Below the pieces are notes generated by a model that was not told where the DNA came from, searched no databases, and worked only from the letters and a program-made list of their open reading frames with translations. DNA of 64,000 nt from an uncultured Terracidiphilus sp. (GTDB lineage: Bacteria > Acidobacteriota > Terriglobia > Terriglobales > Acidobacteriaceae), in assembly GCA_964520005.1 (NCBI GenBank), contig CAZFMB010000008.1, forward strand, positions 10,661 through 74,660, given 5' to 3'. Shown one piece after another: positions 1,679 to 34,209 of the stretch; within the stretch, counting starts at the first letter, position 1, and each line of letters opens with the position of its first letter. The translations under genes were made by a program, and so were the position numbers.

Positions 1679-2575
1679 TCAATTCACCCTCCCCATGGTA
1701 TTCCCCCACCTCTCCTCTTTCCAATCTTCCCCCAAATTTTTACCCATCCCCACCCATTTCGGAAATGGCCGCCTATCCGACTTCCCGAAGCCTTCAATCA
1801 GCTCCCGAATCCGGCTTCGCCTGGACAGCAGCTTTTCCACCAGAGCCTCCATTTCGCTCTGGTCGCCGCCATACCATTCAGGCGGTATCTCGTTGGCCGC
1901 CGCCCACACTGTCTCCGCCGCCATGGTCTCCAGCCGCGTCAGCCACGGTTCAAAGGCCTCCCAACCGCTGATCTCCCGGTAGACATCGTTGCGGTAGTAG
2001 ACCCCTCGCAGCGGCAGATCCTCGAACCTCCACTCCCCGGCGTGAAAGCAATACCCGTAGTCGATGAAGACCGCCCGGTAGCGCCGTTCCCGTTGTTTGC
2101 GCGCGAAAACCGCCTGCCGGCCGTTGGCGTTGCCCGTCCACTTGTCCAAGGCAAGAATCCCGGCAAATTCATTCAGGTTCCGCACCTCGGCCATCTGCTC
2201 CTCGGGCAGGTAATCCACCGCCTGTCCCGGCATCAGCCCGCCTACAAATCTCGACCCGAAGTTCAATCCCGCCGTACACCGCACTCGTGTCCGGCCCAGG
2301 TCCATCTCCAGCTCCGGCGTATTTTCCACCAGCCAGCTGGAGACCTCCATCAATACCGTCTCCGGAGCCGTAAGCCCCGCCGCCACCGCAATTCTTGAGG
2401 CCAGAAATTCGTTGGCCAGCACCCGCACGTGTTGCGGGTTATTCTGAAACTTCACCACGTACACCTGGCCATCCGCGCCCAGCATCAACTGGCCTTGCGC
2501 CCCGCCCCGCATCCGCCGGATATGCTGCACCGCCAGAACCGCCAAGCCCTTGCCCCCGCTCGCATTCAACCCCAC
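1679..2575 (-). CDS. HipA-like family kinase
   Basis: RRMRGGAQGQLMLGADGQVYVVKFQNNPQHVRVLANEF is typical of the HipA-family kinase proteins that pair with DUF3037. A catalytic-loop-like LDKWTGNANGRQ and a DFG-like FIDYGYCF are present. Confidence 0.65.
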   Translation of the reverse strand: MGLNASGGKGLAVLAVQHIRRMRGGAQGQLMLGADGQVYVVKFQNNPQHVRVLANEFLASRIAVAAGLTAPETVLMEVSSWLVENTPELEMDLGRTRVRCTAGLNFGSRFVGGLMPGQAVDYLPEEQMAEVRNLNEFAGILALDKWTGNANGRQAVFARKQRERRYRAVFIDYGYCFHAGEWRFEDLPLRGVYYRNDVYREISGWEAFEPWLTRLETMAAETVWAAANEIPPEWYGGDQSEMEALVEKLLSRRSRIRELIEGFGKSDRRPFPKWVGMGKNLGEDWKEERWGNTMGRVN

Positions 2576-2590
2576 TCGAATTCTATGCGC

Positions 2591-2733
2591 TGACAGTGAA
2601 CAGTGAACAGTGGTCAGTGATCAGTAAGGCGTATCGACACTCAGAACCATGCGTCCAAATTCTAAAATCTGCTTGACAATACCGTAAAACGTTAGCGCGT
2701 CCTCGTTGTTGACTGACCACTGTTCACTGTTTC
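2591..2733. repeat. inverted CAGTGNN heptad arrays between the kinase and terminase genes
   Basis: 2591-2627 reads tgacagtgaacagtgaacagtggtcagtgatcagtaa. 2711-2733 reads gactgaccactgttcactgtttc (reverse complement type) and overlaps the terminase stop codon. Confidence 0.85.
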
Positions 2734-4337
2734 AACTCGGCTCTCGCCTCCAACCCGATCGCCATAGCCATCACCCGGTCGTCATGCGTTCCCGGCCGTG
2801 CCCCGCTCCCGCCATCCGGACGGCGCACAAAACTCCGGCACTCCGCCAGCAGCTTTCGGCTCTGAAATCGCTCCGGTTCCTCCACCAGCGCCGCATCCAA
2901 TTGCCCCAACGCAGTCAGCCTGCTCAACGATGTGGTCAGCCAGCCCGCCTGCCCATTCTGCTTATAAATTCGCCCATACCCGCAGACGCTCTCCAGCAGC
3001 GCCAAAATTCCGCTGCCGTGATTGTTTCTCTCCACCACCAGCCAAGCCTGGTTGTACTCCGTGGCCAGCTTCGTCACAAACTGTGCCAGCTCCAGTCCGC
3101 CCATGTGCCCGGCAAACTCCGCGCACTGCAACCCCGTCTCCAGATCCAGCACCTCGGCCGCCGAATAATCCCCCTCGCTTCCGCCACCGGCCGGGTCCAC
3201 CGCCACCAGATACTTCTTGCCCGTGAGCGGCGGCAACCAGATCTCCAGCTCCCCGTTGTGCCGCACTTCAATCGGCTCAGTCACCGTCGCCAGCCGCGCA
3301 TCCACCGCCCCCAACTCAAAGACTGAATCCCCGCTGGCCAAAAAGCATTTTTCGCAATCTTCCGCGTACTCCTGCCGCGCCAGAGAGCGAAAATCCGCCC
3401 TGATCTGCCGCCGGAATCCAATCTGCTCCAGATCCAGCAGCTTGAAGGCCATTAAATCCCGCTCTTCGTCCGTAAGGCTCTCTTCGTCCACCGCCTTCGC
3501 CCGGTACTGCCGCTCCATCCACCAGGGAAAGAAGTGCCGCACCATCCCCATCTCGCTGGCCTTCTGCCACTCCTCGTAAAAGCAGCCGCCCACCCCCTCC
3601 GGCGTCGATTCCAGTATCAGCTCCGCACCTGGCGCCATCGCCGCCCGCAGTCCCGCCAGCGTCTCCGCTGGATCGCCCGGCCACCTCGCCAGCTCCGAGC
3701 AGTGCAGATTCTGCACCGTCAATCCCCGCCCCGCGTTCCGGTCTCCCGCCGTCACCACCCGGTACTGCGAGTCCATCTCCGGAAAAACAATCTGCCGCAC
3801 GTTGGCCCGCGAAATCTGCAACGGACCCTCGCGCAGCGCCTCCGGCAACCAGTCCACAAAGCGGTGCACAATTCCGAAGATCTCCTCGGCCGCCTCCTGC
3901 GAGTGCGCCACCTGCAGCGTCAGCGTCCCCGGCTGGGTAATTGTCTTCAGAAAAAAGCGCGCCGCCACCCAGGTCGTCATCCCCATCTGCCGCGCCTTTA
4001 GAACAATATTCCGTGTCGCCCGCAGCCGTTCAAAGGCCCGCTGCACCGTGTTCGCCCTGAGCGGCGCAGTGCTCCCATCTCGCGTACGCACCTTCAGCAG
4101 TTGCTCGGCCAGCTCCATCCCTACCGTCCGGCCACGCAGGCTCGCCGGACGAGTATCCAGTATCTTCCCGAAGCGCACCAACTCCTCCCGGTCAAGCTCC
4201 TCCGGGATTAGACTCCGGCCCCCGCTGTTGTTCTCCGCACTTATTTCAGCCACTGTATCCTCGCGATCATTGCCGCCTTCGCTTCCTCTCAAAACTTCTG
4301 TCCTGCATGAAGAGCGCCATATTCCAGGGCTACTCAC
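2724..4337 (-). CDS. phage terminase large subunit
   Basis: Walker-A-like LKARQMGMTTW, followed by a C-terminal RNaseH-like nuclease end (GTHDDRVMAMAIG). 537 aa. The start overlaps the stop of the upstream gene by 4 nt. Confidence 0.8.
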   Translation of the reverse strand: MSSPGIWRSSCRTEVLRGSEGGNDREDTVAEISAENNSGGRSLIPEELDREELVRFGKILDTRPASLRGRTVGMELAEQLLKVRTRDGSTAPLRANTVQRAFERLRATRNIVLKARQMGMTTWVAARFFLKTITQPGTLTLQVAHSQEAAEEIFGIVHRFVDWLPEALREGPLQISRANVRQIVFPEMDSQYRVVTAGDRNAGRGLTVQNLHCSELARWPGDPAETLAGLRAAMAPGAELILESTPEGVGGCFYEEWQKASEMGMVRHFFPWWMERQYRAKAVDEESLTDEERDLMAFKLLDLEQIGFRRQIRADFRSLARQEYAEDCEKCFLASGDSVFELGAVDARLATVTEPIEVRHNGELEIWLPPLTGKKYLVAVDPAGGGSEGDYSAAEVLDLETGLQCAEFAGHMGGLELAQFVTKLATEYNQAWLVVERNNHGSGILALLESVCGYGRIYKQNGQAGWLTTSLSRLTALGQLDAALVEEPERFQSRKLLAECRSFVRRPDGGSGARPGTHDDRVMAMAIGLEARAELKQ

Positions 4338-7300
4338 GGCAGCCAGGTGCAGTAACTACCCGGCTCGATTACCAGCGCATCCGATGTGCTGCTGGAGAGT
4401 CCGTAGACCGTCACCGTCACCGCGTTGGAACTTCCCGTGGTGAGAGTAAATTCGATCTCGTCCCTGTAGCCTGTCGCCGTGGCGCTGGGCGCATCCGCAG
4501 CAGAAACCGCGGTCGTTGTCGTCGAGGCGATCGTAGTATAAGTTGGTGCTTTGTACACTCCCGGAGAATCCTGATTGATCACCCAAAGGTCGGTAGGCGC
4601 ATTGTTCATCCCCATTCCGAATTGCACCGTGCCCACCGCCGTGTTTTGCTCCCAGATCAACACGCACATGCCGCGCTTGGTGGTGCTCACCGGAATCGAC
4701 GGAAGCGCCAGCCCGGTCGTAGTAAAGCTGGTTGCCGCGATGCTCGTCGCGCTGGAAAGCGATGCACCCATTCCGCCCGTGATCGTTCCAGTGGCCGTCA
4801 ATGTGCCCGGCACGCTGGCATTACCCGAACTCGTCACCGTGAAAGCTTGAACGTTATAATTCGCGCCGCCCTCGTAGACAATAAAACCGCCCGTGCCGGC
4901 TCCCGTCGATGCATTGTTGATGGTGACCGCGCTTGTGCCCTGCGAGTTGATGTTGGTTCCCGCATTGATGTAGCCGGTCAGAATGTCCACCGGAGTGGTC
5001 GCGCCCTGATCGTGAATCTTCAGATCGTAGCTCGTATCCTCTTCGATATACCACTCGGTCACCGGCGTCGCGGCGGCGCTGTTCAGTTGAATCCCGCCCA
5101 GATATGCGGTGCTCGACGTGCCCGGTTGAATTACAACATAGTCCGTGCTGGCCGAGTTATTCGCAAAGGTTGTGGTATTACCTGTAAAGGTCGGCGATGA
5201 TGTCAGCGCCAGCATCGATCCACTCCCCGACAACCCGCTGATCGCCGTTCCATTGATCTGTGTGGCGTTGGCATTTCCCAATTGTCCTTCAAGCTGCCAA
5301 TACGTTCCATCGAACGTCGCGCTAATCCAATTACCAGCCAATAAGTCATCGGCAATTAAGTTAGTGCCGCCGCCCCACTTCTTAATAGAAGCAGCTGTGG
5401 CGCCATTCACGGCCAGCGTTGCGCCTCCCGTGTTCGCCACATCCGCCTTGAACTGAATATGGTCTCCGGTCGCGGGTGTAAACGAAGGCGTGGTCGTGCA
5501 TGTGTAGGCTGTCCCCGACCCCGATGCCGCGCTGCAATTCGCCGGCACACTCAAATTGTGCGAGGTCGAGGCCACAAGCTGGCTGCCCGAATTGCTGCTC
5601 AATGCGTTCGTCGATGCCGGTATGCTGCCGCCGTTGATCTTGCCGACGCTCGTCGCCGATTGACTTCCTGTCACATCGCCCGCCAGGGAGTTTGTAAAGC
5701 TGGCCGCCGTCCCCGTCGTATTCGCCGTATTGCTCGGAATGTCCCCGCTCAACAGTGTCGGCAATTGCGCATGAGGAAGCGTGCCCGTTGTCAGGTCCGA
5801 CGCTGAAACTGTCACATTGCCGCTCAAGCTATGACCATTGACTGTCGTGCTCGTAGCCACCCCGCCCAGGTTCGTCAGCGCCCCGGAAGCAGTCGTGGAT
5901 CCCGTTCCTCCCGCCGCTACCGATACCGTGTTCACGCCTGAAAGCGTTGTACCCGTGCCGTTGTAATATGCGATCTGCCCATTGGTCCCCGAGTTCACCG
6001 TCCCGCTGCCGCCCCCGCCCCCGCTCCCGCACGCCGTCCCCGTATTGGTGATGTAACCCGAGTTGTCGATCTGCAGGCAGTTGTAGCCGCCGCTCGACGC
6101 AAGCCCCGGAAATTGAATGGATGTCGTTCCCGTGAAGCTGGCGTACAAACTGCCGCTGTTTCCTCCATACACCTTGAACTGCGTGCCGGACCCTGTTTCG
6201 TAGTTGATCCGCACCACTCCGGTAGAATTCGACGCATCAATATAGGTATCGCCGCTGTTCGTGCTCTGGTAAGCCTTGAAGCTGTCCAGTCCGCCGGTCG
6301 CCGAATTCAGCGCCCAGTTATTGCTCGCGTCCTTCACCATGTACCACTGGCTGCTCCCGTTCCAGTCCTTGTAGGTGTACGCACCTTTCTGGCTGGTGGT
6401 TAGTCCCGGCCATAGATAGTAATCCACCTCGGCATCGGCGTTATTCCGAACCGTCATCGTCCCTGTCGACTGCGACGTGCCTCCCACCAGCAGCGTGCCG
6501 TTGAACTGCGCGTTCCCGGTGTTGCCGACTGTCGCCACCGTGCTCTCGCTCGCTCCTCCCGATCCGAAGATCACTCCGCCAGTCCCCGAGCCATTCGATC
6601 CGTTCAGCACCACAGCTCCGGTCCCCGCCGAATTGATCGCTGTCTGGTTGTTGGTGCTCGACTGCCCGTTGTTATACTGGCCCACCGAAATCCGGTTCAC
6701 GTTGTTGAGCAAATCTTGTATCTGATAGAACTGTTCGCCCGCCGTCGCGTCCGTGTACCCTTCCATCCAGCGATAGCCGTAATCCGTCTGAATCTCATTC
6801 AGCAAGCCGCGTTCGTTTCCCGCGCCCGTCCCCAGCCGCAGGTGATTCGTAACTGTCGCGTCCTTCTGGCTCCCATACCAATCGCCATTCATGCCGTTAA
6901 AGCTGCGATGAAAGGTATCCAGAAAACTGTTGCGCGTGCCATTGTCCGTCAACTGCCCGGTAAACATCGTGCCGCCGGTCATCCAGTTGTTATACGAGCT
7001 GCCCGCATCCGCCACCACCTGATTCGTCGAGTTCTCGTTGCGCAATCCCACAATCGTGTTGTTCTGTGCGTTCGCTCCCAGGTGCAACGCCGTCGCGCAT
7101 CCCTCCACGTCTCCGCCAGTAAAGGTATTTCCATCGCCTTGTTGCAGGTTGATCCCATACGTCCCGCTTACCGGGCTGCCCCCGCTCGTCGGGCAATCAA
7201 TATGCAACCGCACAAACGTGCTCGCATTCAACCAATCCGTCGTCGCGGAATTTGCGATCTGATGCCCAATCGCGTTCACCGCCGTCTGAAATCCCGTAAA

Positions 7301-25362: not shown

Positions 25363-26100
25363 ATGATCTCCCCCCTCGCCATGGACCTCTACGCCGGTCT
25401 CGGTGCAACCGCAGGACTCGCTCTGGCCGCCGGCGGCTTCGCTTACGCCTCCCTCCATCCCGCATCGCAACTCTTCGGTTCCTCGCTCATCGCCCCGCCG
25501 CATCCCGGTGAACTCGCCCTCACCTTCGACGACGGCCCCAACCCCATCTGGACCCCGCGCCTCCTCGATCTCCTCTCCCGTCGCGGCGTCCGCGCCACCT
25601 TCTTTCTCGTCGGCAGCTACGCCCAATCCCATCCCGATCTCGTCCGCCAGATCGCCGCCGCCGGCCACTCCATCGGCAATCACTCCTGGTCCCATCTCAA
25701 CCTGGCCCTCGCCTCCTCACGCCAAATTGAAGACCAGCTCTACCGCACCATTCAAACTCTCGAGGAAATCACCGGCCTGCCTATCTGCTTCTTCCGTCCG
25801 CCCTTCGGAGCACGCCGCCCCGCAACCCTCAGCATCGCCCGCCGCCTCGGCCTCACCCCCGTCCTCTGGAACGCCATGACCTCCGACTGGAAAAATCCCT
25901 CCGCCGACGCCATCGCCCTCAATCTGCAAGCCAAAATCGACCGCCTCTACCGCCAGGGACAAGCCGCCAACATCGTCCTCCACGACGGCAGCCACTCCCA
26001 CTCCTCCGCCGACCGCGCCCCCTCCATAGCCGCCGCCGCCCAACTCATCGCCCGCTACCAACCCACCCACCAGTTCGTCACCCTCGACGCCTGGGCCTAG
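25363..26100 (+). CDS. polysaccharide deacetylase (NodB homology domain)
   Basis: LTFDDGPNP...TFFLVG...GHSIGNHSWSH...FFRPPFG motifs. Confidence 0.85.
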   Translation: MISPLAMDLYAGLGATAGLALAAGGFAYASLHPASQLFGSSLIAPPHPGELALTFDDGPNPIWTPRLLDLLSRRGVRATFFLVGSYAQSHPDLVRQIAAAGHSIGNHSWSHLNLALASSRQIEDQLYRTIQTLEEITGLPICFFRPPFGARRPATLSIARRLGLTPVLWNAMTSDWKNPSADAIALNLQAKIDRLYRQGQAANIVLHDGSHSHSSADRAPSIAAAAQLIARYQPTHQFVTLDAWA

Positions 26101-26570
26101 CACTCGGGCCACATCGCCATGTATTGTGTCAGGGCACGACTTCACAGCTTGCGGAAAAAAGAACCAGCATGGTTACACATCAAGATTCTACGAATCACTC
26201 GGAGCGGAATTAAAGGACTTACGAGCCCTTGTCCCGGCCGAAAATCATCGAAATTACTACTTTGATTCTTTTTTCCGCAAGCTGTTCAGTGAAGATTATG
26301 CACTTGACACAGACATAGATTTGTACTGCGATTGATTGTAATGACAAGTGGCGAATTGTTATATCTTGATAGGACTGTTTAAGAAAAGGCGCATCTTTCG
26401 CCTTATATACCCATTTAAGGAAATACTCAACACTTTATAGTCAGTTTTCCACATATATTTTGCATGGTCTGTGGATAACTTATTGCGCAATTGGTGAAAC
26501 AAGTCGATAATTCGGGAAGGACGTAGGAAGGTTTGCTCCTTTCGCCTACGCTCCCAATTCTCTACGCTGA

Positions 26571-26594
26571 GAGGCTCCGCAAGGAGCCTCTTTT
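26571..26594. terminator. GC hairpin + T-run (intrinsic-terminator-like)
   Basis: GAGGCTCC-GCAA-GGAGCCTC followed by TTTT on the plus strand. It lies 4 nt beyond the stop of the minus-strand NYN gene. Confidence 0.5.
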
Positions 26595-26597
26595 GCG

Positions 26598-27329
26598 TTA
26601 GCACGTTTTTTCGAGGAAATCTCGCAATGCTGCCACATCAACTATTTGTAAACCCCTAGATTTAAGGGCATTCAGTTCTGATGCAATATGCCTAGCCGTA
26701 CCGAATACGCTAACTTGGCGTTTTGCGTTAAGAATGACTGTCAATGGATCAGCGAAATCGCTATCCCCACTGAAAAGACAAAAGCTGTCCGCCTCATTGA
26801 GCTGAAAGGCGATACGCATATCAGTTCCAATCTCAACATCAAAGTTGCATTTCCAGCACTCCAGGTGCAACAAACCGCTCCCATTCAAGGTTCTTAATTC
26901 GTTGTTGAGGCAAGCAATTGTCTGCTCACTTAATCGGTTGAGCAATGTTTTGTCTATAAAGTTCGAAAGGGGGTCTTTGGAGAGCGGATCGGCAACATTT
27001 GAAACGTCAATCGATAGCTGCATCTTTTTTACTGCTTTGGTGCGGATCGTGTATCCGCACCTATGCACGAAGGTCATGAAACGGTTGGCGCTCTCATCTT
27101 TGCGTAGTGTTCCAAAGTAGAATCGCACTTCTTTTACGCCAAAGGAATCGAGAAAATCCTTGAGTTTTTTCAGATCGATTTCCCACCCAAGCCTTTTTCT
27201 CCACTCTCGAACATTACCAAAATCGATATATACAATGGTCCGCTCTGTAAGTAGTTTTTCGAGCAAAGACACCCGCTCCGCGTGGTTCCCTGCGGCGAAC
27301 CCCAACGCGAAAGTCTTAGGTTTGAACAT
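26598..27329 (-). CDS. NYN (LabA/DUF88, PIN-like) domain nuclease
   Basis: The conserved acidic positions occur in canonical order: VYIDFGNV, KCNFDVEIGTDM, LFSGDSDFADPL, followed by VSVFG. AT-rich gene, co-directional with and 68 bp downstream of the CRISPR array. Confidence 0.7.
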   Translation of the reverse strand: MFKPKTFALGFAAGNHAERVSLLEKLLTERTIVYIDFGNVREWRKRLGWEIDLKKLKDFLDSFGVKEVRFYFGTLRKDESANRFMTFVHRCGYTIRTKAVKKMQLSIDVSNVADPLSKDPLSNFIDKTLLNRLSEQTIACLNNELRTLNGSGLLHLECWKCNFDVEIGTDMRIAFQLNEADSFCLFSGDSDFADPLTVILNAKRQVSVFGTARHIASELNALKSRGLQIVDVAALRDFLEKTC

Positions 27330-27397
27330 TTTTTAACCCATATGGAGCATGAGGATCATAATACAGGGAAGCAAGGGGGAGGGTATGTCCCTCAGAG

Positions 27398-27696
27398 GTT
27401 TCCGTCAGCCGTGAATGGACGCCACTCTACGGCTGTCGCTCACTCGCAGACCGCTCCCTGTGCGTTTCAGTCAGCCGTGAATGGACGCCCCTCTACAGCC
27501 ATTTCTCCTGCTGTGCCGTTATTGTGAGGTTTCAGTCAGCCGTGAATGGACGCCCCTCTACAGCCGGCGGCGGGCGGGCGAGGGCGAGTTTGCGGTTTCA
27601 GTCAGCCGTGAATGGTCGCCCCTCTACAGCGAAATTGGTGAACTAACCCGCACGAAAGAAGTTTCAGTCAGCCGTGAATGGACGCCCCTCTACAGC
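27398..27696. CRISPR. CRISPR array, 5 x 36-bp repeats, 4 spacers
   Basis: Repeat GTTTCAGTCAGCCGTGAATGGACGCCCCTCTACAGC at 27398-27433 (3 mismatches), 27464-27499, 27529-27564, 27595-27630 (1 mismatch) and 27661-27696. Spacers are unique and 30, 29, 30 and 30 bp long. The repeat has no internal palindrome. Confidence 0.85.
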
Positions 27697-27992
27697 TGAT
27701 TAGTTCTAAATCGCTGACAAGTATCGAGATCGAAACAAGTGAACTTCGAAAAAAGAGAAAATATCGCCACTGGAAATCGCTGTTTCGTCCATTTATTTGT
27801 CAAATATCGGTGCAAGGGCGAAGCCCGACCGGCGGGCACAAACCCTCCGGTAACGCACCTCGGCTGTTCGGACCAGGGGATGGTCGGTTACGCGGTAACC
27901 GTGAGGATACCGTCATTCGCCTATCCGCCCAGTGCCCGGCCGCGAAACTACTGGTTTCCTTGCCCTGGGGCAATGGAACCGTCCCGGCCGTC

Positions 27993-29603
27993 TTACTCGT
28001 TCTCGATAAGCTCCTTCAACCACTGTTGAAAGAGATCGAACTTCTTGAATTTACCACCATTTTCAATTTGATGCAGTCCGCGCAAAGCAATAATCAGGCT
28101 CGCATTGGAATCCGCATTGGCTTCGTGGCCGCAAGCCATACACAGGAACACGTCCTGAATCGCTTTTCCGGCTGCGTCTTTCTTAGGCCGATTTGCCGCA
28201 TCCTTGTGTCCGCACCGTGCGCAAGTTTGCGAGGTATAAGCCGCAGGAACCTCGACCGGGGCTGGCAGACCTTCGCGCTCTGCCTTGTATGTGAGCATCT
28301 GCTTGAGCTTGGTGAATTGGCTTTGCTTCAGGAACCGGCCCATCGTTACACCCTTGATGGCTTCGATAACGATCTGGGAGCGGTTCTCTTTGGCAATGGA
28401 TACGATCCGATTGGCATATTCGCCTAGAATGATGTCGGCGCGCTTTCCGCGCAGTGAAAATTTGCGTGACCGTTGCTTGCCACTTTGCTGTAGACGCTTG
28501 ATTTGCTGCTCGTATCGCTGCATCTCCGCCGCAAAGGCCGTGCCTTCCAGGTCGAGATTAGTCTTAATCGGTTTGCCTTCACGGTCGATCAGGGTTGCGG
28601 CGCCTATCTTCGCTGCTCCGCGGTCGATGCCAAGGAAAGTTTCTGTCTCTACGATTGGAGGCGTGAATTCGAAGGCCGCGTGGACGTAAAAGTCGTAATC
28701 CTCGGCGCTGAAATGGACTGGCTGATTGGCCGAAACTTTGACATTCGTGTGAGGATACTCATGGCGTTTTACGACTAGTTTTGCGCTTTGGATGGAACCA
28801 TGCGTGAGATATTCACTTTCATGGAATTCGCGGCCCAGTTCCAGGGGCAGAATCATGCCGGGATATTTCTTGCCTTCAATACGTTCCTTTGTTTTGCAGT
28901 TGATAACTCCTTCGTTGAGTACGCGCTTCTCGCAATAGCGGTGATCTTGTGAGAATAGCCGGACGAGCAGATAGTAGTTCCCGTCGCAAAAGGCAAGCAG
29001 GCAACCACGTCCAATCTCGTTGCGTGTGAATTCGATAGGGTGGGGGAGAGTGCCTTCCAACTTGCGCAATATCTGACCAGCGGCGCGTGAGACGGCCCAA
29101 TTGGTGTAGATTTTGCTCAGACGTTTAGCGACGCGGATTTCGCCTCGCTCCATTGCCTTGCCAATCTTTTCCTGATGCTGCGGTTTAATGGTCAGCTTCG
29201 CTTCGGGGTCTGTAAATAGGCTGTAGGCTTGCCGATACTCATCCTCGGACATAGGGTCAAGGTTGGATACAGTGGGTGGATTGGATTCGTTCTCACCTTT
29301 GTATGTCTTGTTGAGGTGACTCATGAGCATCGCAGATGCGTCATTGATGAGATAGTCGCGTAGAGGAGAAAGCTCCCAATCATGCGGAGCAATCGTGTAA
29401 AGGAGTTTACTGAGTTTGAATTTGTTGGGACGAAGTTTCTCTTTCCTGTCCAGTTCTGAAACTTGCTCTAGCAGACCAGGGATTGCCAGCGTCTTTTCGA
29501 GCACGTCCTTCAAAGTCTCGTGGTAGCGGGTCATCGCATACCAGAGCATCGTGCTCTTGTGCCGTGACGGATTGTGGACCTTGAATCGCGCTGTCTTGAA
29601 CAT
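27993..29603 (-). CDS. CRISPR-adjacent TnpB/Cas12-family (type V-like) RuvC nuclease, 536 aa
   Basis: RuvC-I FLGIDRGAAKIG, RuvC-II SQIVIEAIKG, YTSQTCARCGH...FLCMACGHEANADSNASLIIA (CxxC..CxxC zinc ribbon + RuvC-III) in canonical order. N-terminus FKTARFKVHNPSRHKSTMLWYAMTRYHETL is like a TnpB/Cas12 WED start. The array lies 296 bp downstream. Confidence 0.8.
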   Translation of the reverse strand: MFKTARFKVHNPSRHKSTMLWYAMTRYHETLKDVLEKTLAIPGLLEQVSELDRKEKLRPNKFKLSKLLYTIAPHDWELSPLRDYLINDASAMLMSHLNKTYKGENESNPPTVSNLDPMSEDEYRQAYSLFTDPEAKLTIKPQHQEKIGKAMERGEIRVAKRLSKIYTNWAVSRAAGQILRKLEGTLPHPIEFTRNEIGRGCLLAFCDGNYYLLVRLFSQDHRYCEKRVLNEGVINCKTKERIEGKKYPGMILPLELGREFHESEYLTHGSIQSAKLVVKRHEYPHTNVKVSANQPVHFSAEDYDFYVHAAFEFTPPIVETETFLGIDRGAAKIGAATLIDREGKPIKTNLDLEGTAFAAEMQRYEQQIKRLQQSGKQRSRKFSLRGKRADIILGEYANRIVSIAKENRSQIVIEAIKGVTMGRFLKQSQFTKLKQMLTYKAEREGLPAPVEVPAAYTSQTCARCGHKDAANRPKKDAAGKAIQDVFLCMACGHEANADSNASLIIALRGLHQIENGGKFKKFDLFQQWLKELIENE

Positions 29604-29691
29604 GGACGTGAATCTAGCAAGCTAGTCTATTCCCGCAACTGAGCTACTCGCAACTTTCTTTCCCGCCATCGGTTTTCCTCGTATCCGCGTC

Positions 29692-30171
29692 TTAGCCGGC
29701 GCCCGGCGTGCCGAAGCCGATCCGGCGCCGGGGCTTTTCCGGAGGCTTCATCAACCCCCGAATCGCGTCGAAAACCGCTCTGAACTGTGCGTCGTACCGG
29801 CTCTCCATCTCCTCCAACTTCCGCGCCAGATCGCGATGAGAAGCAATGATTTCTCTCAGCTTGACGAACGCGCGCATGATGGCGATGTTGACCTGCACCG
29901 CGCGTGGACTACGCAGCACGCTCGACAGCATGGCCACGCCCTGCTCGGTAAAAGCGTAGGGCGTTGCGCGGCGAGCGCCTCCCCAACTTGAAGTCACAAT
30001 TTGTGACTTCAAGTTTGCTACTTCTGCTCTGGTCAACTGGAACATAAAATCCTTGGGGAAACGCTCATGATTGCGCTTAACAGCCTGCATCAGAACCTTC
30101 GGAACAACCTCATAAAGCTCTGCCAAATCGGTGCTCAGCATCACTTTCTGCCCGCGAACCCGTAAAATCAT
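29692..30171 (-). CDS. ORF6N (KilA-N-like) domain DNA-binding protein
   Basis: [39 protein letters not shown]...[44 protein letters not shown]. Confidence 0.8.
29985..30015. repeat. 31-bp perfect palindrome inside the ORF6N gene
   Basis: AACTTGAAGTCACAA-T-TTGTGACTTCAAGTT. An imperfect second copy lies at 30203-30228, just 5' of the ORF6N start. Confidence 0.9.
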
Positions 30172-30424
30172 CCGTTCAATGCGTTCGGGCGGAATGCCCG
30201 AACTTGAGGTGACAATTTGTGACCTCAGTTGCTCATCAACCTGCTACCTCACCTTGACTTCCAGCATCTTCGTCGTATCGTTGCCCAGAATGTCGATCCC
30301 CTTCACCACCACCCTGTACGACCCCGCCTCCGCGTATTCGCACCCGGCCTTCAACCCATCCCAGATCAGCTCTGTCATATCGCGCCTTGGATTCTACTCT
30401 GGCCCGATAGCCTGTTCCCTGTAT

Positions 30425-31321
30425 TTATTCCCCAGCGAGTTGCTCCAGCAGCCCATCAAAATCCTCCAGCCGCGCGTATTCAATAATGACTTTGCCGTGG
30501 CCGTCGTGATCTTCAATGTGAACCTTCAGTCCCAGCGCTCTCTGCAACCGCTCTTGCACCGCGCGAATATTCGGATCAAGAAGCCGCTCTGCTTTTTCTT
30601 CTTTTTTCGCGGCGCGATCGGGATGCGTAATCCCTTGTATATAAGCCTCTGATTGGCGAACGGAAAGCGAAAGTTTAATCATCCGCTGTGCCGCCATTTC
30701 CATCTCCTCGGCGTGCTCAAAGGCCAGCAGCGAACGCGCATGGCCATAGCTCAGATCGCCGGACTCCACACGTGCCTGTACGGACATCGGTAATCTCAAC
30801 AAACGCAAGTAGTTAGCTACAGTTGCCCGGTCCTTGCCGGTACGAACCGCCATCTGCTCCTGCGTCATGTGAAACTCGCGCGAAAGCCGCTCAAAAGCCC
30901 GCGCCTGCTCCATCGGATTCAGGTCCATCCGCTGCAGGTTTTCGACGATGGTGATCTCCATCGCCTGCTCGTCGGAGACTCTCCGCAGAATCGCCGGAAT
31001 GGTCTTCTTGCCGGCCATTTCCGAGGCCTTCCAGCGCCGCTCGCCCGCGATCAACTGGAAGCGGCCATTGGCCAGCGGGCGCACCAGCACCGGCTGCACA
31101 ACGCCATTGGCTGTGATCGAGGCGGCCAGCTCGCCCAGCTGCTCCTCATTCAATTGCGAGCGCGTCTGAAACGGGTTGCGATCGATTTGGTCGAGGGGGA
31201 TCTCGAGCGGCTTGCCCCCTTCACTCTCCGCGGCGGCGGGAGCGGCAGGGATGCGCGGCAAAAGGGAGTCGAGGCCCTTGCCCAGGGCGCGGCGTTTAAT
31301 GTCGGTAACGGTAGCATTCAT
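30425..31321 (-). CDS. parB: chromosome partitioning protein ParB/Spo0J
   Basis: ALGKGLDSLL, NPFQTR, LIAGERRWKAS, and HTH region TQEQMAVRTGKDRATVANYLRLLRLP. Confidence 0.9.
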   Translation of the reverse strand: MNATVTDIKRRALGKGLDSLLPRIPAAPAAAESEGGKPLEIPLDQIDRNPFQTRSQLNEEQLGELAASITANGVVQPVLVRPLANGRFQLIAGERRWKASEMAGKKTIPAILRRVSDEQAMEITIVENLQRMDLNPMEQARAFERLSREFHMTQEQMAVRTGKDRATVANYLRLLRLPMSVQARVESGDLSYGHARSLLAFEHAEEMEMAAQRMIKLSLSVRQSEAYIQGITHPDRAAKKEEKAERLLDPNIRAVQERLQRALGLKVHIEDHDGHGKVIIEYARLEDFDGLLEQLAGE

Positions 31322-31452
31322 AGTTCAATAACCTCTTTCCCGGAAGAGTGGCCGGGGGATTGAATCTGCATTGATCTGGGGTAATTTGCAATACCTGTTT
31401 TACCTACCCTGGCGCGTCTTTTGTTTTTGCGGCCAGGGCGGAAAGCCGTCCC

Positions 31453-32289
31453 TCAGGGGGTAGGCAAGATTCGAACCTCATCTACTGGCGCGACGGAGTT
31501 GAGATTCGCCTTCGGCGGAATCTCGATGCCGTTGCGCGCCAGAAACTCACCCGCCATTTCGAAGTAAGCCTCGGTGCCGCGGGAACGGGGATCGTACAGA
31601 GCCACTGGCTTGCCGTGGCTGGGCGCCTCGGCCAGCCGCACGTTGCGTGGAATTACGGTGTGGTAGAGGCGATCTTTGAAGTACTCGCGCAGAGTGTCTG
31701 TCACCTGCTGCGCCAGGTTGGTGCGGTCGTCGTACATAGTCATTAGAACACCCTCGATGGTCAGCGTGGGATTGTACGCGGCGCGCACTCGTTCGAGAGT
31801 GGAGATCAGCTCGGAGATTCCTTCCAGGGCGAAGTACTCGGCTTGCATGGGAACGATGAGCGTGTCGGCCGCAGCCAGAACGTTGAGGGTGAGCAGGTCA
31901 AGCGCCGGTGGGCAGTCCAGAATCACCAACTCGTAGTCTTCCTTGATTGACTCCAGAGCGCGACGCAAACGCAATGCGCGATCATCGGCCGTGGCCAGTT
32001 CGACATTGGCTCCGGTCAGGTTTTTGGAGCCGGGCAGCAGCGATAGCTTATCGATCTCTGTGGGCAGAATGACCTGCTCCGCGGGGGCGTCGCCCATCAG
32101 CACATCGTAGATGGAGCGGCGGTTGTCGTCGCGCTGGAATCCCAACCCGGAGGAGCAGTTAGCCTGGGGATCGCAGTCCACCAGGAGAATCTTGATGCCT
32201 TGGAGAGCAAGGCAGGCGGCGAGGTTGATGGCTGTGGTCGTCTTGCCAACTCCGCCTTTTTGGTTGACGAGGCCGAGAATCTTTCCCAT
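31453..32289 (-). CDS. parA: chromosome partitioning ATPase ParA/Soj
   Basis: Deviant Walker A NQKGGVGKTTTAINLAA, plus LLVDCDPQAN and ILDCPP. Confidence 0.9.
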   Translation of the reverse strand: MGKILGLVNQKGGVGKTTTAINLAACLALQGIKILLVDCDPQANCSSGLGFQRDDNRRSIYDVLMGDAPAEQVILPTEIDKLSLLPGSKNLTGANVELATADDRALRLRRALESIKEDYELVILDCPPALDLLTLNVLAAADTLIVPMQAEYFALEGISELISTLERVRAAYNPTLTIEGVLMTMYDDRTNLAQQVTDTLREYFKDRLYHTVIPRNVRLAEAPSHGKPVALYDPRSRGTEAYFEMAGEFLARNGIEIPPKANLNSVAPVDEVRILPTP

Positions 32290-33463: not shown

Positions 33464-34209
33464 GGGGCTTAGGAAGAAAAGGCCGTCAGATTGGGTTCTT
33501 TCTCAAGAGCGATAGTAGCACTTTGTAGAGGTCATTGTTGCGGTGATTGAAGCGAAATTCTGTTTCTTTCAGATGGAGCGGAAAGGTACATTTGCTCACG
33601 CCGTGAAACTTCGTCAAGCGGTGTTTGGCAAAGCCCCAAAAGCTCTCGATGCCGTTGATGTGATTCGGTCCGGCGGCAAATTCGCTGTCCCCGTGAAGGA
33701 CGCGAAAGTGTCGAGCGTAGCCGAGATCAACCAGGCCGTCGTAGCCGCTCCAACCGTCGGTATGAATCGTAGAATCGAACGAGGCATGATTGCGAATCAC
33801 CGCTTGTAGAGCGGCTCTTGAGACATTCGACATGATTTGCGCGTAGACCTTGTCGTCGCGTTTGAGCAGTCCGAAGACGATTGTTTGCGATCCGCGCCAC
33901 GCCCGCGCTTACCACGAACACGATGTGGTCCGAAGTAAGATTCGTCGGCTTCGAGATCGCCGCTAAAGGGCGACAGCTTTTCACATTCTTGGGCAAGTTT
34001 TTCTCTGAGCCGTTGAAAGATAGGGTTGACGCTACGCACCGAAATGCCCGTCATCTTTGCCGTCTGAGAGGCAGACAGATCAAGCGCGAAACAGCGCAAA
34101 AGTTGGCGAAATCTGGCCTCGGAAATCTTCGCAAAACGAAAATAGCGGTTAACCTGCTGCATGGCAATATGTTAACGCCACTCAACTATGCCTTTTCTTC
34201 CTAAGCCCC
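33464..34209 (-). mobile_element. IS1595-family insertion sequence (746 bp) with perfect 20-bp IRs and 8-bp TSD
   Basis: IR GGGGCTTAGGAAGAAAAGGC at 33464-33483 and its exact reverse complement at 34190-34209. Flanking direct duplication TTTCCTTT at 33456-33463 and 34210-34217. Confidence 0.85.
33486..34162 (-). pseudogene. IS1595 (ISXO2-like) transposase, frameshifted
   Basis: The N-terminal frame (34162 down to about 33885) reads ...YFGPHRVRGKRGRGA. The continuation IVFGLLKRDDKVYAQIMSNVSRAALQAVI...HTDGWSGYDGL...GIESFWGFAKHRL is in another frame. The shift lies near 33880-33895. Confidence 0.75.

Follow-up and report, generated by a model that had tools for sequence, protein, structure and literature searches.

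Cas12e uses a trans-activating CRISPR RNA (tracrRNA). According to one preprint, the known subtypes that it identified (Cas12b, e, f and n), with the exception of Cas12h, need such an RNA (10.64898/2026.03.27.714800), and the published minimal Cas12f locus contains cas12f, a putative tracrRNA and the CRISPR array, in that order (PMC7229846). Cas12f guides of about 200 nucleotides (nt) consist of stems 1–4 and a pseudoknot core, with a repeat:anti-repeat duplex as stem 5 and a proposed ‘head-to-toe’ stem that involves the 5′ end of the tracrRNA; the part of the scaffold core that adjoins the guide is said to occur both in these RNAs and in the right-end RNA (reRNA) of TnpB (PMC12255294). For Cas12n, the preprint already mentioned cites a tracrRNA whose coding sequence forms the C-terminal tail of the open reading frame (ORF), a tail that is unstructured and dispensable (10.64898/2026.03.27.714800). 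The subject here is positions 27697–27992 of a 64,000-nt stretch of an uncultured Terracidiphilus sp. genome (assembly GCA_964520005.1, contig CAZFMB010000008.1, positions 10,661 to 74,660), which is subsequently referred to as the window. The region lies between a nuclease gene and a CRISPR array, and an initial annotation of the window had proposed that it holds a tracrRNA or omega-RNA-like scaffold with a split anti-repeat.

Comparison of related loci indicates that the minus strand of this region very probably codes for a tracrRNA belonging to a compact CRISPR-Cas system of type V that resembles Cas12f and Cas12e. The element adjoins both the effector gene and the array, its anti-repeats co-evolve with the repeat, and the secondary structure of its scaffold is conserved. 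It is filed here as the putative tracrRNA of an unclassified Cas12f/Cas12e-like type V system, and thus as a kind of RNA that is already known. The order of nuclease, tracrRNA and array is that of the Cas12f systems (V-F; Un1, As, Sp and CnCas12f1). The scaffold proposed in the initial annotation is strongly supported by the presence of one conserved element per locus, by co-varying helices and by contacts that co-vary with the repeat.

A single conserved element follows the nuclease gene

The comparative set consists of 95 related loci, 25 from genomes (nearly all of them metagenome-assembled genomes of Acidobacteriota) and 70 from metagenomes, with nucleases that range from 92% down to about 45% identity to that of the window. 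In nearly all of these loci the nuclease gene is followed, after a spacing of about 250 nt, by an array of matching orientation, whose first repeat is usually found 250–262 nt beyond a conserved sequence that starts at the stop codon of the homologues. A hidden Markov model searched with nhmmer identifies one and only one copy of the element in each locus; every copy is on the same strand as the nuclease gene and immediately follows the ORF. R1, a covariance model of 149 positions and 39 base pairs, agrees: in each of 93 related loci it has a single match, without exception on the nuclease strand and immediately downstream of the ORF. Within the window R1 matches nowhere but at this position (Table 1).

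Base pairing in R1 was counted on 70 distinct sequences. Standard pairs occupy 94.0% of the R1 cells compared with 76.6% in shuffles, and the value falls to 33–45% when the partners are slid. Compensatory change is observed in 28 of the 39 pairs, a number reached by none of 500 shuffles (shuffle mean 22.2). A plain MAFFT/RNAalifold run that preceded R1 gave 19 compensated pairs. Covariance across homologous loci, which the initial annotation had named as a check on its proposal, is therefore present in the core and, as described below, in the contacts with the repeat.

The helices are arranged in two domains, H1–H3 and H4–H7 (Table 1). The conserved core helices are reproduced by the minimum free energy (MFE) structure of the window sequence itself; one alternative helix in that structure, CGGCC/GGUCCG, was rejected since by inspection it is without support in other clades. 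A long scaffold of about 200 nt with multiple stems is a feature shared with Cas12f, from which the RNA differs in having no sequence or Rfam match. Rfam was searched with a permissive E-value over 26000–31000 and at the gathering threshold over the whole window, and neither search gave a match.

At three of the R1 pairs a U·G or G·U combination is invariant or nearly so, being seen in 70/70, 59/70 and 67/70 of the sequences, respectively. These pairs would become A·C mismatches on the other strand, which identifies the RNA as a nuclease-sense (minus-strand) transcript. The initial annotation had allowed for an RNA from either strand, and this has to be given up because the pairs work only in the minus-strand transcript.

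Three segments of the scaffold co-vary with the repeat

Large differences between the repeats of the various clades make a direct test of pairing between scaffold and repeat possible. Three anti-repeat segments, AR-a, AR-b and AR-c, are found (Table 1). AR-a forms 5–8 base pairs with the end of the repeat that adjoins the spacer in 32/32 loci. It is fully compensated in L023 (GCUGUAG/CUACAGC) and L082 (GUUGUAA/UUACAAC), and its positions 6 and 7 co-vary as AG/CU, AU/AU and AC/GU. AR-b, located between the two domains, exists in about ten sequence versions, all of them complementary to the repeat of their own locus, among them CCCACG/CGUGGG, CCCCC/GGGGG, CCCGCC/GGCGGG, CUCACC/GGUGAG, UCCGCC/GGCGGA and UGCCCG/CGGGCA. 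This segment is 97.5% paired, with compensatory change in four of five pairs. Counted together as 12 pairs on a concatenated scaffold–linker–repeat alignment (A3), AR-a and AR-b are 91.6% paired as against 76.7% in shuffles; nine of the 12 pairs are compensatory and 0/500 shuffles are as good.

The split anti-repeat of the initial annotation was based on the plus-strand sequence GCTGTTTCGTCCATT at 27779–27793, which is present as described and had been read as a match to the repeat in two blocks of 5 and 8 nt. The 8-nt block, AAUGGACG opposite CGUCCAUU, is AR-c. It is conserved in the clade of the window, with wobble or compensated variants in L007, L052 and L024, and in most other clades its place is taken by a different complementary stretch of 6–11 base pairs in a shifting register. 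The duplex energy of AR-c is −16.9 kcal/mol with the repeat of its own locus compared with −13.9 kcal/mol with other repeats. The 5-nt block, ACAGC/GCUGU (27783–27779), is not conserved and is lost in close relatives such as L001, L006, L007 and L010. The two best-supported contacts, AR-a and AR-b, had been missed. When the repeats of own and other loci are permuted, 4/20000 permutations are as good as the observed pairing for AR-a and 0/20000 for each of AR-b and AR-c. AR-c is a real contact but the third and weakest.

The three contacts are colinear in the antiparallel sense, and scaffold and repeat can therefore be viewed as one interrupted duplex into which the two domains are inserted. 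In Cas12f the repeat likewise pairs with a 3′ anti-repeat of the tracrRNA (stem 5), while an internal or 5′ segment of the tracrRNA, in the pseudoknot and the ‘head-to-toe’ stem, holds the bases adjacent to the guide (PMC12255294). Unlike Cas12f, the window scaffold has three colinear contacts, one of which lies in its very 5′ part. Co-folding with one repeat, a further check put forward in the initial annotation, also turned out in favour of the pairing: the MFE structure of the window scaffold with repeat 1 and its spacer recovers AR-b and AR-c, with a free energy difference (ddG) of −9.6 kcal/mol compared with −4.1 ± 2.2 kcal/mol for shuffled repeats.

Table 1. Features of the nuclease–scaffold–array cassette in the window, listed in the direction of the minus strand.
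Feature	Position	Strand	Remarks
Nuclease gene, 536 amino acids (aa)	27993..29603	-	RuvC and zinc-ribbon TNB domain; Cas12f/Cas12e-like
15-nt insertion GAGAACGAGTAAGAC with in-frame TAA	27990..28004 (approximate)	-	Relative to the 90%-identical loci L026 and L031 and other homologues
Stem 0, hairpin GGUUCC-A-UUGCCC-CA-GGGCAA-GGAAACC	27953..27980	-	Inside the coding tail of homologues
AR-a, tracr 5′ GUUUC(G)	27943..27948 (GUUUC = 27948-27944)	-	Complementary to (U)GAAAC, which ends the repeat and adjoins the spacer
Putative tracrRNA core, covariance model R1	27804..27951	-	R1 score 144 bits
Domain 1, nested helices H1-H3 around the invariant GGCGAAUGA motif	27873..27932	-	90.5-99.3% paired; 13/21 pairs compensatory
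AR-b, tracr CAGCCG between the two domains	27861..27866	-	Pairs with repeat bases 23-28, CGGCUG
Domain 2, H4 enclosing H5/H6 and the H7 hairpin GGGC-UUCG-GCCC	27809..27859	-	88.5-100% paired; 15/18 pairs compensatory
AR-c, AAUGGACG	27786..27793	-	Pairs with repeat bases 13-20, CGUCCAUU
U-rich tract UUUUCUCUUUUUU	27749..27761	-	Candidate tracrRNA 3′ end or part of an array promoter
Leader element, inverted partial copy of the repeat 3′ end, GUUUCG ... GUCAGC	27713..27736	-	
CRISPR array with four spacers (29-30 nt) between five copies of the 36-nt repeat GCUGUAGAGGGGCGUCCAUUCACGGCUGACUGAAAC	27398..27696	-	

Signals in the window itself

On the minus strand, 296 nt (27992–27697) separate the stop codon of the nuclease (27993) from the repeat closest to it (27696). 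The division into an AT-rich and a GC-rich segment noted in the initial annotation is correct, with a G+C content of 0.37 in 27697–27810 and 0.65 in 27811–27992. The fold of the whole 296 nt has an energy of −107.5 kcal/mol, which is only moderately better than that of shuffles (z = −2.2). When the region is shuffled with its composition kept, 21% of the shuffles contain an 8-mer match to the repeat or its complement and 4.7% a colinear 8+5 match, so that the split match is marginal when taken alone. When the repeat was slid with RNAduplex along both strands of the flanking 3 kb on either side, many equally good matches appeared in GC-rich coding DNA and no anti-repeat stood out. The strong evidence is comparative, and the signal from the window alone is weak.

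The three perfect hairpins that had been pointed out in the GC-rich segment are all present, their coordinates agreeing to within 1–2 nt. One of them, TTGCC/GGCAA, is the inner part of stem 0, and the other two are not conserved. GGTTAC/GTAACC and GAAAC/GTTTC were rejected as pairings; their halves belong to H3 and to stem 0 plus AR-a, respectively.

The first hairpin and the end of the nuclease reading frame

Directly upstream of the stop codon of the homologues lies an element that forms a hairpin in every case, even though neither its sequence nor its length is constant. This hairpin, stem 0, encodes in the homologues a variable tail of 14 aa that follows a conserved GRDG motif. RNAalifold failed on stem 0 because of the length variation in the alignment, and the helix was therefore counted with an explicit structure. 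In a plain MAFFT alignment of 32 loci 81% of the cells are paired compared with 65% in shuffles, and compensatory change is seen in 12 of the 13 pairs, with 0/500 shuffles as good.

The window allele contains a 15-nt insertion with an in-frame stop codon (Table 1). This removes the 14-aa C-terminal tail, which in homologues is translated as far as a TAG at 27951–27949. Stem 0 (27980–27953) is intact although the new stop codon has removed it from the ORF, and the loss of the tail from the protein with retention of the hairpin suggests that it is the RNA, and not the peptide, that is under selection. These observations hint that the C-terminal tail is dispensable and that the constraint acts on the RNA. 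In homologues the RNA thus appears, from the alignments, to begin inside the 3′ end of the ORF. The scaffold had originally been placed directly 3′ of the ORF; this holds for the core, which follows the ORF of the homologues, but not for the start of the RNA.

The arrangement is similar to that of Cas12n (V-U4), in that stem 0 is located in a variable 14-aa coding tail, which is lost in the window allele. In contrast to Cas12n, the overlap with the ORF is limited to the first hairpin and does not include the bulk of the RNA, and the PADLOC Cas12u4 model scores only 35 bits on the nuclease. The position of the first hairpin inside the ORF (in homologues) also sets the RNA apart from that of Cas12f.

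The array and its leader

The repeat farthest from the ORF (27398–27433) is degenerate, with three mismatches. Arrays of related loci contain between two and about 20 repeats. The arrays of L006 and L050 have only two spacers in common, both at the trailer end, while the array of L068 is that of L012 with one extra spacer at the scaffold-proximal end. As related arrays differ at the scaffold side and share trailer-end spacers, and as the degenerate repeat is found at the far end, the leader is on the side of the scaffold. Arrays next to the same nuclease in six samples are identical and thus uninformative on turnover. The differences between related arrays show that spacer acquisition is ongoing, presumably by an adaptation module encoded elsewhere: despite the polarised acquisition, no cas1, cas2 or cas4 gene is present within about 6–10 kb of the effector.

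The repeat had been described as lacking an internal palindrome. In the window it can form an imperfect hairpin (−9.1 kcal/mol), so the description has to be qualified; across the family no repeat hairpin is conserved.

About 13–40 nt upstream of the first repeat, the leaders of L001, L002, L003, L006, L082, L025 and others contain an inverted copy of part of the repeat. In relatives the copy is contiguous, GUUUCC(N)GUCAGC. It tracks the local repeat (own-versus-other permutation, 62/20000). In L079 about 200 extra nt are located between scaffold and array (about 150–460 nt after the start of the scaffold), including a 14-nt inverted repeat fragment, TTCATGCCCGCGCG. Two loci have no array: L092 consists of the nuclease, the scaffold and one intact repeat (about 255–291 nt after the scaffold start), and L056 of the nuclease and scaffold with a single degenerate repeat. 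These represent either decayed arrays or an omega-RNA-like state with a fixed guide.

The nuclease is related to Cas12f and Cas12e

Members of the nuclease family are annotated in databases as IS605 OrfB/TnpB transposases. The window protein matches the Pfam Cas12f1-like TNB domain (PF07282, 1.9e-17) and the PADLOC Cas12f/Cas14b models (about 113 bits), the latter over the C-terminal RuvC/TNB half only. It differs from Cas12f in that the protein match is limited to this half and is sub-threshold. Residues D327, E414 and D498 and the four cysteines of the zinc ribbon (CxxC...CxxC) are invariant across the family, and the protein shares with Cas12f effectors a length within 400–700 aa, a C-terminal split RuvC, a TNB domain and an intact catalytic triad.

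A confident AlphaFold2 (AF2) model of the nuclease has a pLDDT (predicted local distance difference test) of 84.5. A Foldseek search with this model gives Cas12e (1e-17) and AsCas12f [1.7e-16, template modelling (TM) score 0.38–0.49] as the best solved matches, Cas12e scoring as well as AsCas12f, and a profile search of the PDB sequences returns AsCas12f at about 4e-19. The nearest solved relatives of the nuclease, by sequence and fold, are Cas12f and Cas12e. On these matches the nuclease is a compact Cas12 that has a REC insertion, and not a minimal TnpB. Its likeness to Cas12e (CasX) consists in the best Foldseek match to the protein model; Cas12e is, however, nearly twice as large, and no similarity between the RNAs was detected.

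A proposed mechanism

The tracrRNA would start at or just before stem 0 (about 27980) and run at least to AR-c (27786), a length of about 195 nt. It may end at the U-tract (27761–27749), which could also form part of the array promoter region; a T-run is found at a comparable distance in many relatives of the window locus. The two domains, H1–H3 and H4–H7, would be separated and flanked by three short single-stranded segments, and these would pair in antiparallel fashion with the repeat of the CRISPR RNA (crRNA), AR-c with bases 13–20, AR-b with bases 23–28 and AR-a with bases 31/32–36 next to the spacer. Once the pre-crRNA had been processed, the nuclease would bind the tracrRNA:crRNA hybrid, with the spacer-derived 3′ part acting as the guide. 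Targeting of DNA, presumably with a protospacer-adjacent motif (PAM), would then be followed by cleavage at the intact RuvC site.

A number of points weigh against the assignment as a tracrRNA. The R1 alignment was fitted to the structure, which inflates the pair counts, but the plain MAFFT alignments A2, A3 and A6 agree with them; because the loci share a phylogenetic history, the counts from shuffles cannot be read as probabilities. With regard to the contacts, AR-a amounts to only 5 base pairs (plus a G·U) in the clade of the window and is absent from the MFE structure of the window co-fold, and several clades (L012/L014/L016 and L025) show AR-c weakly or not at all. Consensus scans of the minus strand found neither a sigma-70-like promoter nor an intrinsic terminator in the region, and no protospacers for three of the window spacers were found in IMG/VR. 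Finally, the protein stays below the threshold of the curated NCBIfam Cas12f2 model NF049972, with 124 bits where 450 are required and with a match confined to the C-terminal half.

Alternative explanations

It is possible, although decidedly unlikely, that the region encodes an omega-RNA-like contiguous guide of a ‘TranC-like’ intermediate between TnpB and Cas12. The 3′ end of the mRNA, the scaffold, the leader and the first repeat–spacer unit would then be one transcript that serves as a single guide by nature, the leader forming a long loop in it, and separate tracrRNA and crRNA molecules would be unneeded or would be one of two modes. The omega-RNA layout suggested in the initial annotation is borne out to the extent that the scaffold, like the omega-RNA/reRNA of TnpB (IS200/IS605), begins in the 3′ end of the ORF and continues downstream on the same strand. 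The nearly constant distance from scaffold to first repeat (about 250–262 nt), the lack of a detectable terminator between scaffold and array, and the single repeats of L092 (intact) and L056 (degenerate) would also fit a contiguous guide, as would the existence of non-CRISPR, TnpB-annotated relatives on plasmids. In addition, the colinearity of the contacts makes a single-chain version topologically simple. The layout differs from that of TnpB, however, in the source of the guide, which is a true and active CRISPR array with spacer turnover and not a transposon flank. With up to about 20 repeats and polarised turnover, the units past the first must pair in trans. The RNA of the window, unlike the omega-RNA, would consist of two parts, tracrRNA and crRNA. 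A full REC insertion is present in the protein, which has its closest relatives in Cas12f and Cas12e rather than TnpB and matches LaTranC weakly (E about 1e-3 only, over the TNB region). No TnpA, transposon or element ends are found near the window nuclease, whose neighbours are ORF6N, ParB, ParA and NYN-domain proteins.

A second explanation is that of a cis-acting element without guide function, such as a structured 3′ untranslated region (UTR), an attenuator or a leader for spacer integration, the likeness to the repeat being a by-product. The position of the region is that of a 3′ UTR and leader, and the inverted partial repeat copy might serve integration or processing and not guiding. 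This explanation is nevertheless very improbable. It does not account for three segments that co-vary with the repeat by base pairing, in about ten sequence versions, nor for some 39 pairs kept through compensatory change in two domains, and the nearest solved relatives encode a tracrRNA at the same position (PMC7229846; PMC12255294).

Coincidence of an anti-repeat and hairpins in a GC-rich intergenic stretch, to which the 8+5 match and the fold of the window alone would leave some room, is refuted by the occurrence of one conserved element per locus in 93 loci, with proteins down to about 45–50% identical, and by covariation of the core, of AR-a/AR-b and of stem 0 that 0/500 shuffles reach.

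Genomic neighbourhood and distant relatives

At the trailer end the cassette is flanked by a gene for an NYN-domain protein (26598–27329, minus strand). Upstream of the cassette are genes for ORF6N, ParB and ParA (29692–32289), followed by two further ORFs (33486–34162), one a fragment of an IS1595-type transposase and the other with a weak, sub-threshold match to sigma-70 region 4. No cas1, cas2 or cas4 is present among the neighbouring genes of the window nuclease, which is a further difference from Cas12f. An 83%-identical homologue is situated among toxin–antitoxin genes, with no adaptation genes within 10 kb. As the neighbours of this homologue are different, the cassette has moved between contexts.

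Full-length homologues of the nuclease (27% identity, 96% coverage) are found in 182 Salinibacter phage records, each with its own array downstream. In Salinibacter phage 4_12 (L102; OR896275.1, locus 2342–4814) an array of 6–7 repeats of 30 nt, GTCGAACTATACCCTTTGGGGTGCTGAAAG, is located some 550 nt past the ORF. Between the two are CTTTCACCGGCC, which may be compared with GTTTCACCGGCC at the 5′ end of the scaffold, and ACCCCAAG, which is complementary to the repeat. The locus looks like a phage-borne relative of the system. A homologue on a Pseudoalteromonas spongiae plasmid (L103; NZ_CP023400.1, locus 2474–3940) is 25% identical over nearly its full length and is annotated as a TnpB family protein. 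No array is present within 800 nt downstream of it, and it may be a non-CRISPR relative. R1 gives no match on the Salinibacter phage and Pseudoalteromonas plasmid homologues.

Implications

Literature searches for the repeat sequence and for Cas12f with tracrRNA and Acidobacteria found no papers. With the region read as a tracrRNA, a family annotated as ‘IS605 OrfB/TnpB transposase’, with hundreds of members in peat and soil Acidobacteriota, becomes a defined miniature CRISPR-Cas12 system. The boundaries, the two domains and the three repeat contacts provide a guide-RNA blueprint supported by covariation, from which a single-guide RNA can be designed directly. The locus also illustrates that the anti-repeats of compact type V systems can be short (5–8 nt) and split, invisible in one sequence and plain in comparative data. 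That the first hairpin of the RNA overlaps a coding tail which is dispensable is one more data point for the link between TnpB, Cas12n and Cas12f.

A more far-reaching and rather unlikely possibility is that the locus preserves an ‘RNA splitting’ intermediate between TnpB and Cas12, in which one transcript, including the first repeat–spacer unit, would serve both as an omega-like single guide and as a tracrRNA in trans for the remaining units, within a wider type V lineage. The start of the scaffold inside the nuclease ORF and its fixed distance from the first repeat would be in keeping with such a stage. The inverted repeat fragment of the leader may in this case regulate which of the modes is used. 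If this is true, the Salinibacter phage relative, with its own array and its AR-a-like and AR-b-like motifs, would point to a broader, undescribed type V lineage that is shared by soil bacteria and the phages of halophiles.

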